Origin: Candidatus Marinacidobacterales bacterium
GTDB taxonomy: Bacteria > Acidobacteriota > Vicinamibacteria > Marinacidobacterales > SMYC01
Direction: 5' to 3'
Assembly (NCBI GenBank): GCA_965237955.1
Contig: OZ250169.1
Span: 4,672,001 to 4,736,000, forward strand
Length of the DNA: 64,000 bases
Every line of letters starts with the position of its first letter. The first letter of the stretch is position 1. This document shows positions 1,204 to 8,906 of the stretch, piece by piece. Both the position numbers and the translations under genes were made by a program. The notes below the pieces were generated by a model, which worked only from the letters and a program-made list of their open reading frames with translations, was not told the origin of the DNA and made no database searches.

Positions 1204-1276
1204 GGCACTCCCACAGGAAACGGGGAGAAACAGATAGGCCGCGCCTACGGAGCACCGTGCCAGCCCTCGACCCTAC
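1204..1276 (+). ncRNA. Group II intron 3' remnant (part of domain 6)
   Basis: Near-identical to the reverse complement of 4539-4611; ends CCCTCGACCCTAC. Confidence 0.85.
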
Positions 1277-1384: not shown

Positions 1385-1460
1385 GGCCCGGTCGCAAACA
1401 CAGACACTAAGCTGCTGATTTATGGTCTATTTCGAAAGGGTCGAGTTTTGGCACAGGACG
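1385..1460 (-). repeat. rve-element left end, copy 2
   Basis: ...CTAAGCTGCTGATTTATGGTCTATTTCGAAAGGGTCGAGTTTTGGCACAGGACG. Confidence 0.95.
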
Positions 1461-1552
1461 GGGTCAGGTCAGCTGAAAGACAGGGTCTGCAAATTGCTGG
1501 CGGAAGAGCCCGGTTTAACGGACCGGAAGACCACCACCGCACTCGGCACATC

Positions 1553-3775
1553 GTGACCGGTGCGGCCAGGCGACAACAGAAAGCGCCAAACCAGGAGGTT
1601 CTGGCTGGCCTCGTCGAGCGGGTGACGTTCCACAACGCCGATAATGGATTCTGCGTTCTGCGCATCAAGGCCCGGGGTCATCGCGATCTTGTGACGGTCG
1701 CCGGGCACGCCGCCATCGTTTCGGCCGGGGAGTGGGTCACGGCAGCGGGGGAATGGGTCAACGATCGCACCCACGGCCAGCAATTCAAGGCGGGCTTCAT
1801 GCGCACCTCGGAGCCATCGTCGATCGACGGCATCGAGAAATACCTTGGCTCCGGCATGATCCACGGCATCGGGCCGGTCTACGCTAGGAAGATGGTCAAG
1901 GCGTTTGGCGAAAAGGTATTCGATATCATCGAGGCCGAGCCGGAACGACTGCGCGAGGTGACCGGCATCGGCCGTGTGCGTGCCAAACGCATCACCGACG
2001 CCTGGGCGGAACAGAAGATCGTTCGCGAGATCATGGTGTTCCTGCACAGCCATGGCATCGGCACGGCGCGCGCGGTGCGGATCTACAAGACCTACGGCGT
2101 GGATGCCGTTCAGGTCATGACCGAGAACCCGTACCGCCTTGCACGAGATATTCGCGGCATCGGGTTCAAGACCGCCGACATGATCGCCATGAAGCTCGGC
2201 ATCGAGAAAACAGCCATGATCCGGGTTCGCGCGGGGATTTCTCATGCGCTCACCGAGGCGATGGACGATGGTCATTGCGGCCTGCCGGCCGAAGAGCTTG
2301 CACCGCTCGCCGTCGAATTATTGGAAGTGTCAAAGGAGTTGGTTCAAGACGCGCTGGACCTCGAACTGGCAGAAGGCACCGTCGTCGCTGCGGCGGTTGC
2401 CGGAACTCCCTGTATATTCCTTGGCGGCCTCTACCGTGCCGAACGGGTGATCGCCGAGAGGGTTCTCCGGATTACGGGCGGCAAGCTTCCTTGGCCGGAT
2501 ATCGATGCCGGCAAGGCGCTACCCTGGGTCGAGGGGAAGACCGGTCTGTCGCTGGCGGCAAGCCAGGCCGAGGCGGTTCGCCTAGCCCTGACCTCCAAGG
2601 CATTGGTCATCACCGGCGGGCCGGGCGTGGGCAAAACGACCATCGTCAACGCCATCCTGCGCATCCTGGCCGCCAAGGGCGTGACCCTGCTGCTCTGCGC
2701 CCCAACCGGCCGCGCCGCCAAGCGGATGACCGAGGCCACCGGGTTCGAGGCGAAAACGATCCACCGGCTACTCGAAGTCGATCCCAAGGGCGGTGGGTTC
2801 AAGCGCAACGGCAACAACCCTCTCGATTGCGGCCTGCTGGTCGTTGACGAGACCTCGATGGTGGACGTCATGCTGATGCAGGCCTTGCTGAAGGCGGTCC
2901 CCGACACTGCCGCGCTACTGATCGTGGGAGATATCGACCAACTGCCCTCGGTCGGTCCGGGCCAGGTACTGGCCAGCATCATCGCCTCCGGTGCCGTCTC
3001 GGTCGTGCGGCTGACCGAGGTTTTCCGTCAGGCCGCGCGAAGCCGGATCGTCACCAGCGCGCACGGGATCAACCGGGGTTCCATTCCCAATCTTTCGAAG
3101 CCCGAGGGCGACAGCGACTTCTACTTCGTGCAGGCGGACAATCCGGAAACCGCGGTGCCGATGATCATCGAATTGGTGAAGACGCGCATCCCAAGGCGCT
3201 TCGGGCTCGATCCGATCCGCGACATCCAGGTACTGTGTCCGATGAACCGCGGCGGCGTCGGCGCCCGCTCGCTCAACATCGAGCTGCAGACCGCCCTCAA
3301 TCCGGCCGGAGAGCGCAAGGTCGAGCGCTTCGGCTGGACCTTCGCGCCCGGCGACAAGGTGATGCAGATCGAAAACGATTATGACAAGGAGGTTTATAAC
3401 GGTGACATCGGCTATATCGACGATGTCGATCCCGAAGTCGGCGAGCTGACCGCGCATGTCGACGGGCGCGCCGTCGCCTATGGCTTCGGCGAGCTTGACA
3501 CGCTGGTTCCGGCATACGCTGCAACCATTCACAAGAGCCAGGGTTCGGAGTATCCCGCCGTCGTCATCCCCGTTCTGACCCAGCACTACGTTATGTTGCA
3601 GCGGAACCTGCTCTACACCGGCGTGACACGCGGCAAACGGCTGGTTGTGCTGGTCGGCCAGAAGAAGGCTGTGGCCATCGCCGTGCGCAATGTCTCGGGA
3701 CGGCGGCGGTGGTCGAAACTGGATGAATGGCTCGGCGATGCGGGAAACCGGCTTGCTCTCTCTTCCGGCAGCTGA
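1553..3775 (+). CDS. recD2: ATP-dependent RecD-like (RecD2) SF1B DNA helicase
   Basis: N-terminal GLVERVTFHN..FCVLR, HhH region, Walker A GGPGVGKT, VVDETSM, YAATIHKSQGSEY, LLYTGVTR; start codon uncertain (the ORF-track start at 1448 lies inside the repeat). Confidence 0.93.
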   Translation: MTGAARRQQKAPNQEVLAGLVERVTFHNADNGFCVLRIKARGHRDLVTVAGHAAIVSAGEWVTAAGEWVNDRTHGQQFKAGFMRTSEPSSIDGIEKYLGSGMIHGIGPVYARKMVKAFGEKVFDIIEAEPERLREVTGIGRVRAKRITDAWAEQKIVREIMVFLHSHGIGTARAVRIYKTYGVDAVQVMTENPYRLARDIRGIGFKTADMIAMKLGIEKTAMIRVRAGISHALTEAMDDGHCGLPAEELAPLAVELLEVSKELVQDALDLELAEGTVVAAAVAGTPCIFLGGLYRAERVIAERVLRITGGKLPWPDIDAGKALPWVEGKTGLSLAASQAEAVRLALTSKALVITGGPGVGKTTIVNAILRILAAKGVTLLLCAPTGRAAKRMTEATGFEAKTIHRLLEVDPKGGGFKRNGNNPLDCGLLVVDETSMVDVMLMQALLKAVPDTAALLIVGDIDQLPSVGPGQVLASIIASGAVSVVRLTEVFRQAARSRIVTSAHGINRGSIPNLSKPEGDSDFYFVQADNPETAVPMIIELVKTRIPRRFGLDPIRDIQVLCPMNRGGVGARSLNIELQTALNPAGERKVERFGWTFAPGDKVMQIENDYDKEVYNGDIGYIDDVDPEVGELTAHVDGRAVAYGFGELDTLVPAYAATIHKSQGSEYPAVVIPVLTQHYVMLQRNLLYTGVTRGKRLVVLVGQKKAVAIAVRNVSGRRRWSKLDEWLGDAGNRLALSSGS

Positions 3776-4506: not shown

Positions 4507-4538
4507 TGTGATCCGCAAAAAAGAAAATCGCGTACCCG

Positions 4539-5440
4539 GTAAGGTCGAGGGCTGGCGCGGTGCTCCGTAGGCGCGGCCTATCTGTTTCTCCCCGTTTCCT
4601 ATGGGAGTGCCTCACTAGCCGCACCGTAAGTCCGTTTCCAGCCCCCGCCACATCGCACGCAGCGTGCGGCTTTCCCGCACTACGCGCTCCTGCACACTTC
4701 CCGCGAAGGGTTATGTGACCTATCGAGCCGGGGCGTCTTTCGGCGAATCTACGAGATATCGAACTCGGTAATCTGTGAACAGTCCGACAGTCGCCTACAT
4801 CCATCGCCTGCTCCATCGCTTCCAGCCGAAACCTTGGCGCAAGAAGCGCCAAGACTTCTCGGCCTTCGCCTTGACGTATATCCTTCATCTCAGCTCCTGC
4901 AGAGTGATGGGTGATTTTGTCATCTCACCCCTGCCTCGCTTGTTGACGAAGGAGTTGTGTGCAGCAGGGCCCCTTTGCTCCACGGGCGTTGCCCCGTTTC
5001 AACGCTACTACGGACCCAGCCGCCACCGTCTCGTCTTCAACCGTTTTCCCGGGGCCTCCGGTTATGCGGTCTACCTTGCTCCGTCGATTTCTCGACGGGA
5101 CGAGGACGGCTTCTCCAGTTGCTTGGCATGTCCTTGTCACCGTGCTGTCCCTACCACCCCGCCAGAGGGATGTGCCTCATCAGATAGTCTGGCGACACAT
5201 CCCTGTTGCCTTCGTCCGACACGAGAAAACTCGGCCTCTGGGGTCTATTTTTTTGTCGGGGCCACCTATGGGTTCACTTGTGTTACGGCCCGGTGACTCG
5301 CTCACCATCCTCAAGATGGCTTTGTCAGTCAGCTTCATCCGTCTCGTTTCCTCCACGAACGTGACTCAAGCTACGGGGCGCTAACTTTTTCCCCGGTGGG
5401 ACTCTCTCCCACTGAACATGCCAGCCTTCGCTGGACGCAC
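4539..5440 (-). ncRNA. Group II intron ribozyme, effectively ORF-less (902 nt)
   Basis: 5' GTGCGTCCAG at 5440; D5-like GCGCGTAGTGCGGGAAAGCCGCACGCTGCGTGC at about 4655-4687; 3' end CGACCTTAC; remnant of the intron-encoded protein (IEP) inside. Confidence 0.9.
4720..4923 (-). pseudogene. Internally deleted group II intron reverse transcriptase/maturase remnant
   Basis: MTKSPITLQELR*RIYVKAKAEKSWRF fused to LRQGFGWKRWSRRWM*ATVGLFTDYRVRY, resembling the N- and C-termini of bacterial IEPs; two in-frame stops and no RT core. Confidence 0.8.
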
Positions 5441-5938
5441 TCGTGTCCAAAAATACAAACGAACTCTAAGACCCGCGCGCCGGGACGTCGCCGAGTTCAT
5501 CTATCATTATCATGGAGAGTGCAACCATCAAGGGCTTGGCAACACGTTTGTATTTTGGACACGACGGCATCGCTTATGAACCACTCTCATCGCAGCCTCC
5601 TTCACGTCGCACCGGCGTGGAGCCCACGAACTTGTAATCTAATAGACGCGCTCAACAATCCAAGCTGGATAGAAAACGCAATTTGGGGTACGCGCAGGAC
5701 TCCCAGCCAAACTTGACAACGGGCTCAGTCGCACCAACGTTGAGCCGACCTCTGAGCCGGTGCCATCTACAGAGACTACCGCGTTTCATTCATACGGGGT
5801 GGCCGTCAGGCCGTGAAAAACTTGACAGTACCATCCGAAACGCTCCGGCTGATGCAAGTCTTGAGTTCGTTCGTGTTTTTTGACACGACGCGCTCACTCA
5901 AACGATTGTGCGGCCGGCAGCGAAAATGTAGCGGGCGC

Positions 5939-6199
5939 CTAAGGGAGTGGACCGATCCGACCGGGAGCCTCGAAACTTCGGGCTCGCTTCCAAGCTCTCA
6001 TGAGCTCATCCTGATGTTGAGAGGCCCACTCCACAACGAGACCGGTCGCGCGAGCGGGAAGGCGGCCTGCCGTCAGCGATAGCGTCTCGATGGCAAAGAG
6101 AGCCTCGTCGGACCCGTAATACGCATGGAAATGAGGAGGGGCATGATCGTTGAAGAACATCCGCACGACGATGCCATAAAACCGGCTTAGCTCAGGCAT
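5939..6199 (-). CDS. DUF4160 family protein (putative toxin)
   Basis: MPELSRFYGIVVRMFFNDHAPPHFHAYY...VVEWASQHQDEL..W family pattern. Confidence 0.85.
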   Translation of the reverse strand: MPELSRFYGIVVRMFFNDHAPPHFHAYYGSDEALFAIETLSLTAGRLPARATGLVVEWASQHQDELMRAWKRARSFEAPGRIGPLP

Positions 6200-6482
6200 C
6201 TACATCGGCGACCGATATTCGAGGAAAAACCTCCTCCGGCTTCTTTCCGGTTAGCTCGAGGTAGATGCTGTCCGGGCATAGCTCGATGTCTTTGTTCCAC
6301 GCGATGCTTCCGTGGGGGCTCACGTGGACGGTCTCGAAGAATGCAGGATCACTCCACGACGAGAATATGCCCTTGCCGACGAAGGGAATGAGGTCCACCT
6401 CGCCTTCGGTGCCATCCTCGTAACGCACCCAAATCTTGTACTTGGGCAACGCTCGAACTTCGCGAACCTTCAACATGCCCAC
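6192..6482 (-). CDS. DUF2442 family protein (putative antitoxin)
   Basis: V..L..YKIWVRYEDGTEGEVDL...GSIAW..IELCPDSIY pattern; overlaps the DUF4160 gene by 8 nt. Confidence 0.85.
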   Translation of the reverse strand: MGMLKVREVRALPKYKIWVRYEDGTEGEVDLIPFVGKGIFSSWSDPAFFETVHVSPHGSIAWNKDIELCPDSIYLELTGKKPEEVFPRISVADVDA

Positions 6483-7440: not shown

Positions 7441-7580
7441 CGTCCTGTGCCAAAACTCGGCCCTTTTGAAATAGACCATAAATCAGCAACTTAGTGTCTG
7501 TGTTTGAAATAGACCATAAATCAGCAACTTAGTGTCTGTGTTTGCGACTGGACCAAGGGCCGTGGGCTTTACAATCGTCT
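7441..7580 (+). repeat. rve-element left end, copy 5, with an internal 38 bp tandem duplication
   Basis: TTTGAAATAGACCATAAATCAGCAACTTAGTGTCTGTG at 7465-7502 and 7503-7540. Confidence 0.95.
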
Positions 7581-7707
7581 TGGGCGGGCGGGTCGTCACC
7601 ATGCAGATGACCACCTAGTCGAGAGCGAATATCGAAGCGTGTTCCTGAAGCGGTTTCCACGCTACGCCGGTCGAGCCCGCCGAGGGGCTACCGTCGCCGG
7701 CGACCAT

Positions 7708-8778
7708 CTACGCGGCACGGCAGTAGTAGTTGAGAATGCCCCCAAGTCGCTCTCGCGACACGATGGGGCCAGCGTCATTCGCGCTTGCCGGCAGAGGTGT
7801 GAGGAGCTCGTTGCCGAGACCTTGGTGGTTCCGTTCTGTGTGATAGTGCACTACGTATTCGGTTACTGCTGTGCGCAGGTGTCGCTCACTGAGAGGTACG
7901 AAGCGGTCGAGACACTCTCGACGTATGGAGAGAACGAATCTTTCCGCATATGCGTTCAGATTCGGACTATTAGCGGGAAGGCGAAGGGGCTTCACGCCTG
8001 AATCTCTCAACAGCCCACGTACCGCCTCGGTGAATAGCGGGTCTCGGTCGTGGATGAGGTATCGCTTGCCAAGGAGGAAACCATCCCACATGTCAGTGAG
8101 GTTTCTTGCCACCTGCTTCATCCACTCCCCGTTGGGGTCCGACGTTATCCCACCGATGCACACGCAGCGAGTGGCGATATCGATGACAAACAGGACATGG
8201 TAGCGGACGAGCCCGAACGGGTTCACAACCTCGACGGTGAACAGGTCTGTCGCAGCGATGGCACCCCAATGAGCCTTGATGAAGGTGCTCCACGACATGC
8301 TCCTGCCCCGCTCCGGCGCAGGAGCAATACCGTGCTCGGCGAGGATCCTCTTGATAGTGTTGCGTCCGAGTTCATGTCCTAGGTTCTTGAGTGCGCCTCG
8401 CAGGCGCGTATATCCCCACGTCGGGTTCTCCCGCGCCACGCGCACAATGAGCTCACGGATGTCCTTCGCCGTCGGAGGTCGGCCTGGACTCCGGTTCTTG
8501 CTGCCATCGTACTTGGCTGCGATGAGGTGGCGGTACCAGCGCAGAAGCGTAGCGGGTGTGGCAACGGACGCAATCTGGGCCAGCGCCTCGCGGCCCAAAG
8601 CCTGGGCCTTGACCGCGAGCCTGCGCCGGTCGTCGTCCGAGAGACTGAGACGCTTGCCCCGAAGCCCGGCTCGGAGCACACGGTTCTCCTCTTGCAGGTA
8701 GTCGATCACATCCTGCTGCTGGCGGTTGACCCAGCCAGCTAGAACGAGCAGTAGGAATTGCACGTGGTACGTCATCAT
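7708..8778 (-). CDS. Integrase-core (rve) DDE transposase with N-terminal HTH, IS481-like/unclassified; appears intact
   Basis: [24 protein letters not shown] (D), LIHDRD (D), NAYAERFV (E), [19 protein letters not shown]. Confidence 0.92.
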
Positions 8779-8906
8779 GGATCTGAAGATAACACCCTCG
8801 GGCCAGACGATTGTAAAGCCTACGGCCCTTGGCCCCGGCGCAAACACAGACACTAAGCTGCTGATTTATGGCCTATTTCAAAAGGGCCGAGTTTTGGCAC
8901 AGGACG
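8778..8906 (-). repeat. rve-element left end, copy 6 (native position upstream of the transposase)
   Basis: Directly abuts the transposase ATG; tip reads GAGTTTTGGCACAGGACG. Confidence 0.95.

Follow-up and report, generated by a model that had tools for sequence, protein, structure and literature searches.

A protein-less group IIB intron whose lineage likely homes two bases inside the ends of rve-type insertion sequences and MITEs

The intron and its features

On the minus strand of the window (the whole 64,000-nucleotide stretch of Candidatus Marinacidobacterales DNA that was analysed) lies a group II intron of 902 nt, which starts with GTGCG, ends with TAC and interrupts one terminal repeat of a MITE (Table 1). 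Its coordinates, proposed in an initial annotation made from the sequence alone, hold, and its domain I region matches the Rfam model group-II-D1D4-4 (RF02003) with 120 bits against a gathering score of 49 (E 2.6e-26); none of the Rfam domain V/VI models reaches its gathering score on the 902-nt intron. The predicted fold contains a domain V hairpin and a domain VI with a bulged A, and the domain V triad may be read as CGC with a G-U wobble. The GUGYG start, the AY end and the group II domain I match are those of subgroup IIB, and the 5-nt domain V loop present in the fold is a feature of class E/F ribozymes (Nagy et al. 2013, PMC3753933). Nearly all relatives have C or T as the exon base at position +1, which, from the exon base alone, fits EBS3 = G. 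The intron does not conform to the IIC type found at terminators or attC sites, as its EBS2 is present and covaries with the target. A search for a terminator-like site in 5400-6100 found none, and there is no upstream sigma-70 promoter match.

The intron retains two fused remnants of the gene for its intron-encoded protein (IEP), the N-terminal part being 81% and the C-terminal part 76% identical to the protein of a full-length relative, L021; with L021 as reference, about 1,119 nt of the gene have been deleted at about 4843. The 902-nt copy therefore lacks the intact IEP that characterises an autonomous mobile intron. The L021 protein has 436 aa, carries RFADD, lacks an endonuclease domain and scores 343.7 bits with TIGR04416. 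An RT-X protein without endonuclease domain and with FADD in RT5 corresponds to class F/g2, and FADD is listed as characteristic of g2 (Toro and Martinez-Abarca 2013, PMC3552965). In pairwise comparison, the L021 protein is 47.9% identical to a g2 reference (pBMB67) and 35.2% and 28.4% identical to two g3 references. The intron is thus likely class F/g2-like, an assignment made by pairwise identity and motif rather than by a tree with the reference classes. In the source genome (G000) there are three complete copies, with 99-100% identity.

Table 1. Features of the intron, its host element and related sequences in the window
Feature	Position	Strand	Basis or comment
Group IIB intron, 902 nt, ORF with internal deletion	4539..5440	-	Sequence and Rfam domain I match
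Domain I 5' part (RF02003)	5278..5414	-	Rfam, 120 bits
EBS2 CAAAAA, in A-rich loop 5245-5256	5250..5255	-	Pairing and fold
EBS1 UCGUGU	5219..5224	-	Covariation across the clade
Fused IEP gene remnants (first 27 and last 38 codons)	4726..4923	-	Comparison with L021 protein
Domain V hairpin, 5-nt loop, 2-nt bulge	4651..4689	-	Predicted fold, -21.5 kcal/mol
Domain VI, branch A predicted as a bulge at 4545 (7 nt before 3' end)	4539..4649	-	Fold
5' exon: IBS1 and IBS2 within right terminal repeat of MITE	5441..5453	-	Sequence, pairing
3' exon: terminal CG of MITE, 902 nt away from remaining repeat	4537..4538	-	End conservation
Host MITE body (128 bp counting displaced CG)	5441..5566	.	Intact 129-bp copies elsewhere in genome
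Opposite terminal repeat of MITE, intact	5545..5566	+	Sequence
Further unoccupied end, same family as MITE end	5863..5890	+	Sequence, end search
73-nt 3' fragment of same intron, then CG	1204..1276	+	In 395-bp composite 1066-1460
rve-transposase IS, family B, related but not target family	7441..8906	-	ORF 7708-8853, Pfam rve_3

The host element and its terminus

Excision of the intron in silico yields a 128-bp element with near-perfect inverted ends, and the restored right end equals the left end save for one extra base in an A/T run; apart from that base, the restored terminal repeat described in the initial annotation stands. The end family to which it belongs has 188 genome copies when up to three mismatches are allowed, and the two bases that follow the insertion point are C in 177 and G in 183 of them, whereas beyond this CG conservation drops and leaves a loose target preference. 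The possibility that CG is a target duplication was considered and rejected, since among 148 distinct flanks examined none of the 42 element-free flank copies is preceded by CG. Hence CG forms the terminus of the element itself, and the intron lies two bases in from the tip, splitting the terminal A^CG as had been proposed. No target site duplication is visible in the paired ends, and the search for empty sites succeeded for none of 19 and none of 74 pairs.

The element interrupted in the window is a MITE without transposase. An autonomous partner is found in the same genome (G000 C1:3072772-3074119): a 1,348-bp element with ends of the MITE's family and a 360-aa rve ORF, the latter 54.5% identical to the rve_3 transposase of the window. 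With an integrase-core ORF between inverted ends, the host elements are rve-type DDE IS; the earlier view of an rve-IS host is therefore right for the end family, which bounds an rve element, but not for the particular element interrupted here. The family-B transposase scores 101 bits with NF033577 (IS481) against a cut-off of 224 and 82.5 with the IS3 model against 160, and the target family's own transposase enters this comparison only through its pairwise identity to the family-B protein. Because these scores are below both cut-offs, the elements are named rve-type here, without family assignment, and those at 7441-8906 and G000 C1:3072772-3074119 possibly represent an unclassified group. 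Elements of rve type are very abundant, with 464 family-B and 169 family-A ends, and end in CG.

Other parts of the surrounding IS mosaic include a DUF4160 and DUF2442 gene pair (5939-6482), presumably a toxin-antitoxin-like arrangement, and the 395-bp composite at 1066-1460, which is bounded by ends of a related element. Beside the mosaic, the regions 1448-3775 and 2-916 hold an ORF that we take to be a RecD2-like helicase and a serine-recombinase fragment (Pfam Recombinase), respectively.

Guide pairing and its covariation with the target

The proposed guides UCGUGU and CAAAAA pair with exon positions -6..-1 and -13..-8, respectively, at 6 of 6 positions each, as had been claimed. Their expected placement in open loops was borne out for EBS2 alone: in the minimum-energy fold of the single sequence EBS2 is open, but most of EBS1 is paired in a shifted register. 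Since the single-sequence fold misplaces EBS1, its position rests on covariation and not on the fold.

Covariation was scored over 16 intron-exon sets of the RNA-tree clade described below, with 13 distinct EBS1 and with G-U counted as a pair, leaving out L005, L032 and the L021/L022 set. EBS1 and IBS1 pair at 94 of 96 positions, compared with 56.8 +/- 5.2 for shuffled exons (0 of 5000 shuffles reach 94), and EBS2 and IBS2 pair at 85 of 96, compared with 77.4 +/- 2.0 (0 of 5000 reach 85) under a best-window search that lifts the shuffled baseline; the sets are related by descent, and the shuffle figures are not independent-sample probabilities. Judged against shuffled exons, these 6-bp EBS1-IBS1 and EBS2-IBS2 pairings are those of a IIB intron. 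The predicted covariation of EBS1 with variants of the terminal repeat is thus found across the clade, and it recurs within the source genome, where copy 3 has EBS1 UCCUGU and exon ACAGGA, and copies 1 and 2 have UCGUGU and ACACGA. L032 and L034 carry EBS1 UCCUGU against exon ACACGA, with 5 of 6 positions paired (one mismatch each).

Relatives and their insertion sites

Relatives were identified by a search with the L021 protein in part of the genome collection, and the best 80 of 586 confirmed loci were used. In an RNA tree built from 82 sequences after masking of the two EBS loops, from which duplicates and short fragments had been dropped and in which the relatives come from the best 80 of 586 loci, the introns of the tip type group together at a support of 0.98. 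In a protein tree of 62 IEP sequences, 10 clade members stand together (SH-aLRT 99.6); L088 is inside the RNA-tree clade and outside the clade in the protein tree.

Within the order, 33 intron 5' ends are present in 55 genomes, and 30 of them were fetched. Twenty-nine of these 30 junctions are at rve-IS tips, one of them displaced by a later IS: 23 follow the MITE end family or a close variant, with one more if the later IS is allowed for, five are at ends of a second family, and the remaining junction is that of an intron that falls outside the clade. L005, considered as an off-target insertion, was rejected as such, as its end is normal and was displaced when a later IS inserted, with a 6-bp duplication. 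The proposed specialisation on rve-IS tips is therefore supported within the order, but it extends over several related end families and not one.

Intron-free copies locate the tip in further target families. In genome G442, all nine free copies continue for two bases, CG (8) or CA (1), and then diverge, and they are arranged as inverted pairs that flank rve ORFs at a spacing of about 1.4 kb. Free copies read CA in 15 of 15 cases in G009/G012/G013, in 10 of 11 in G346 (whose intron, L129, is a 5' fragment absent from the trees), in two of three in G441, the third reading TA, and in the one copy of G444. For the five target families that have intron-free copies, these copies, in which two conserved bases are followed by divergence, place the insertion point once more at two bases from the tip (^CG or ^CA). 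Homology to rve within 1.6 kb upstream is found at 4 of 10 clade loci outside the order and at 0 of 64 non-clade loci, among the best 80 of 586. Across the clade as a whole, the claim of specialisation is less complete: L126, a member of the RNA-tree clade, lies beside a tRNA-like fragment (with short direct repeats in its neighbourhood), without an rve signal and not at an evident IS tip, and L060, L041 and L088 have no intron-free copy in their genomes. The L126 site is perhaps the end of an integrative element and not of an IS. The exon site of L042 has two copies in its genome, both occupied.

Outside the clade, L097 (genome G462) is inserted at the end of a different inverted repeat with 74 copies. 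It was considered as a second -2 case and rejected, since free copies show that the insertion is flush with the repeat end; it is a second origin of end targeting, in a different register. At least 23 of 66 non-clade relatives, among the best 80 of 586 loci, are inserted at one position in the domain V 3' strand of other group II introns and carry variants of AACCGU/AACCGG as EBS1; they include L044, L051, L055, L063, L075, L076, L083, L095, L111, L116, L121, L123 and L128. No description of the domain V of other introns as a target was found in the literature searched. Together, the domain V insertions and L097 indicate that the wider class parasitises mobile DNA in several ways, and that the -2 register is a property of the clade.

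Two smaller groups have other sites. L056, L085 and L093 form a small clade just 3' of a CCGG-loop-CCGG hairpin, with EBS1 CUUCAU, and L087, L090, L091, L115 and L346-L351 form an Acidobacteriaceae clade sharing an AT-rich exon motif; the exons of L087, L090, L091 and L115, tested as possible element ends, have a low copy number in their genomes. A pattern scan of viral contigs gave no match, one metagenome scan, with a pattern that was too narrow, gave a single locus (L138), and a phylum-wide DNA search gave matches in 10 of 401 genomes, few of them informative.

Spread of the protein-less form

The same deleted intron is complete (896-902 nt, 98-99% identity) in five genomes from two families (G000, G012, G015, G021 and G033), where seven distinct 3' flanks follow it and ends of several subtypes precede it. 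Judging from these sequences, the protein-less derivative has spread across genera and families, and the occurrence of one deleted form at seven 3' flanks suggests that it was likely mobilised in trans. No intact cognate IEP was found in the source genome, where the best intact matches are about 31% identical, and matches to the cognate protein at E<=1e-120 occur in only 3 of the 55 genomes of the order; on both grounds, the window copy is probably immobile now. Other internally deleted introns of the clade (L008, 766 nt; L024, 869 nt; G000 C1:886182-886404) have different breakpoints, which indicates that the ORF was lost more than once.

An excess of 3' ends

Across the order, intron 3' ends outnumber 5' ends by 189 to 33 (5.7-fold), in a count for which the search patterns differ between the two ends and which includes amplified composites. 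The 3'-end fragments are mostly shorter than 150 nt and have recurring breakpoints near intron positions 795, 830-833 and 844-846. In the source genome, the first 650 nt of the intron are covered 3-5x and the last 70 nt 32-36x, and 26 distinct 3' flanks, 22 starting with CG and four with CA, are found together with three 5' junctions. Among 110 fetched loci, the lineage has 67 distinct 3' flanks, 62 of which start with CG, and upstream its fragments often adjoin intact ends that belong to several IS families. A 73-nt fragment with one and the same flank is present at 10 fetched loci in five genomes, and eight times in the source genome, in which copies 2 and 3 also have a common 3' flank. Thus, intron fragments travel as cargo in larger composites.

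An unrelated intron of the same genome (G000 C1:373357-374637 and 3588750-3590021) has an intact-looking ORF and an approximately twofold 3' excess; one of its copies precedes the 3' end of a transposase gene of the rve type. Relative to replication, with an uncertain placement of the origin, the strand ratio is 6:11 for introns and 65:104 for ends, so the introns show no more bias than the ends themselves.

Simple 5'-truncated integration as the source of the 3' fragments was rejected, as none was seen by eye to be joined to a CG-less end. Possible sources of the excess are one-sided erosion, aborted homing healed by IS insertion, homing coupled to transposition, and use of the intron tail as a substitute end. 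Insertion of IS into existing breaks is another route to IS-bounded fragments (Ngan et al., PMC11708052).

The initial annotation allowed that the intron either immobilises its host or rides on it. Only three of the 188 ends read A-GT, and all three are the intron copies themselves; hence there is no sign of an occupied end that moved after being cut two bases into the intron. The comparison, which draws on three occupied ends, leans towards immobilisation.

How the lineage may home

Given the site, the guide pairings, the way these covary over related ends and the fact that one deleted intron has inserted separately several times, we favour, with a probability of roughly 0.8, the reading that this is a protein-less IIB intron of a lineage that retrohomes by EBS-IBS pairing two bases inside the ends of rve-type IS and MITEs. 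The lineage is likely a parasite specialised on another parasite. Read-through transcription outward across the element end would be the source of the RNA, and a full-length relative would supply the endonuclease-less reverse transcriptase in trans. The RNP would then reverse-splice into the strand ending in CG or CA, and priming would come from host replication, as in endonuclease-less class D introns (PMC4615759). The tip would make a good target, being multi-copy, dispensable and kept constant by the transposase, and as ends diverge, EBS1 and EBS2 would follow. Insertion would part the terminal dinucleotide from the repeat and inactivate that end, so movement of the intron from genome to genome would rely on retrohoming and on transport as cargo in larger composites, and not on the occupied end.

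Plain homing of this kind gives no explanation for the 189:33 excess of 3' ends. One alternative, which we consider unlikely, is that homing is coupled to transposition: the intron would enter open ends held by the transposase and prime from the 3'-OH of the target DNA after strand transfer, this 3'-OH would replace the missing endonuclease, and aborted events would leave 3' fragments. If true, it would account for both the fixed register and the large 3' junction excess, and it agrees with a protein that has no endonuclease domain, with a -2 register and an outward orientation that are constant over end families of different sequence, and with 3' flanks that carry the base signature of free-end flanks. 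However, the ends are homologous, so one inherited register accounts for the constancy, C or T at +1 is found in almost all introns of the class, and L097, an independent relative, is flush with its repeat end and not at -2. The flank signature is also predicted by plain homing, and the tabulated 3' fragments, inspected by eye, include none joined to a CG-less end.

We give a considerably smaller chance to riding, in which the intron's 3' tail and the displaced CG would serve as a substitute end that the transposase joins to targets, amplifying 3' fragments. The steep 3'-terminal coverage does resemble the terminal peaks of active elements, and 22 distinct CG-starting 3' flanks stand against three 5' junctions in one genome. 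Yet DDE transposases require a binding site adjoining the cut, and the T-tract seen in the repeat is missing from the intron tail. Moreover, the recurrence of one 3' flank with various 5' breakpoints points to erosion after insertion, the unrelated intron also has a 3' excess, though only about twofold, and IS-bounded fragments could arise through IS insertion into existing breaks (PMC11708052). It is least probable of all, and hardly credible, that there is no specialisation, so that a few old insertions were copied within composites and the clade pattern reflects IS-end abundance. Copying has certainly occurred, as seen for the amplified 73-nt fragment with its flank and for the common 3' flank of copies 2 and 3. 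But 67 distinct 3' flanks were counted among the fetched 3' ends, 62 of them starting with CG, the 13 distinct EBS1 each match a different end, a covariation that largely refutes this explanation, and the rve association is 0 of 64 in non-clade introns from the best 80 of 586 loci, many of them from comparable metagenome-assembled genomes.

Relation to known introns and significance

The initial annotation knew of no description of such a pairing, but targeting of IS inverted repeats is published: in Sinorhizobium meliloti GR4, the inverted repeats of ISRm17 are the homing target of the intron RmInt2 (Martinez-Rodriguez et al. 2014, PMC4615759; PMC5894124). Both RmInt2 and the lineage described here are endonuclease-less IIB introns with IS inverted repeats as multi-copy targets, and RmInt2 uses EBS1/2/3 pairing and can use both IS ends (PMC4615759). 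RmInt2, however, is a class D intron and a case of one intron and one IS, whereas here a class F/g2-like clade has 13 EBS1 variants and several ends at a fixed -2. RmInt1 homes into ISRm2011-2 and has been proposed to block the spread of that element (review PMC5894124); a block in the present case would, in contrast, act on the DNA end in cis, at a target common to autonomous elements and MITEs.

In Thermosynechococcus elongatus, mobilisation in trans has been demonstrated for the TeI3 introns (Mohr et al. 2010, PMC2882425). As in TeI3 introns that lack the ORF, one deletion has left N- and C-terminal remnants of the ORF and, in the present case probably, was followed by proliferation in trans, and the TeI families likewise have diverging EBS and other mobile elements as targets (PMC2882425). 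The TeI introns, however, have an endonuclease domain and are described in one genome, whereas the deleted form here is found in genomes of two families, with no driver protein in the source genome. Specialisation of whole lineages on recurring sites is also known from IIC introns at terminators and attC sites (PMC4424553) and from a IIB1 clade at start and stop codons (PMC12584367). IIC introns recognise a hairpin and do without EBS2, whereas the present lineage keeps a 6-bp EBS1 together with EBS2 and tracks its target by sequence change. Within class F/g2, B.th.I3 on pBMB67 is an intron of about 2 kb with an RT-X protein of about 435 aa and FADD (47.9% identity to the L021 protein), and neither the text nor the table of PMC3552965, as far as available, describes IS-end specificity for g2 introns. 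A clade tracking the ends of rve elements at -2 is not described in the available portions of the literature searched, including PMC4424553, PMC7923331, PMC12584367, PMC8643678, PMC3753933, PMC3522654, PMC2504315 and PMC8919778.

In summary, IS-end targeting was already known from RmInt2, and a clade with re-tuned guides at one register is an extension of it, which widens such targeting from one described intron to a clade whose guides have been re-tuned many times while the register stayed fixed. The clade is a natural series for the coevolution of a parasite on a parasite at base-pair resolution. Because target, intron and transposase are all defined, it is directly testable whether an endonuclease-less intron borrows a transposition intermediate. 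Since every insertion would inactivate one transposon end in cis, the introns may act as a brake on very active elements.
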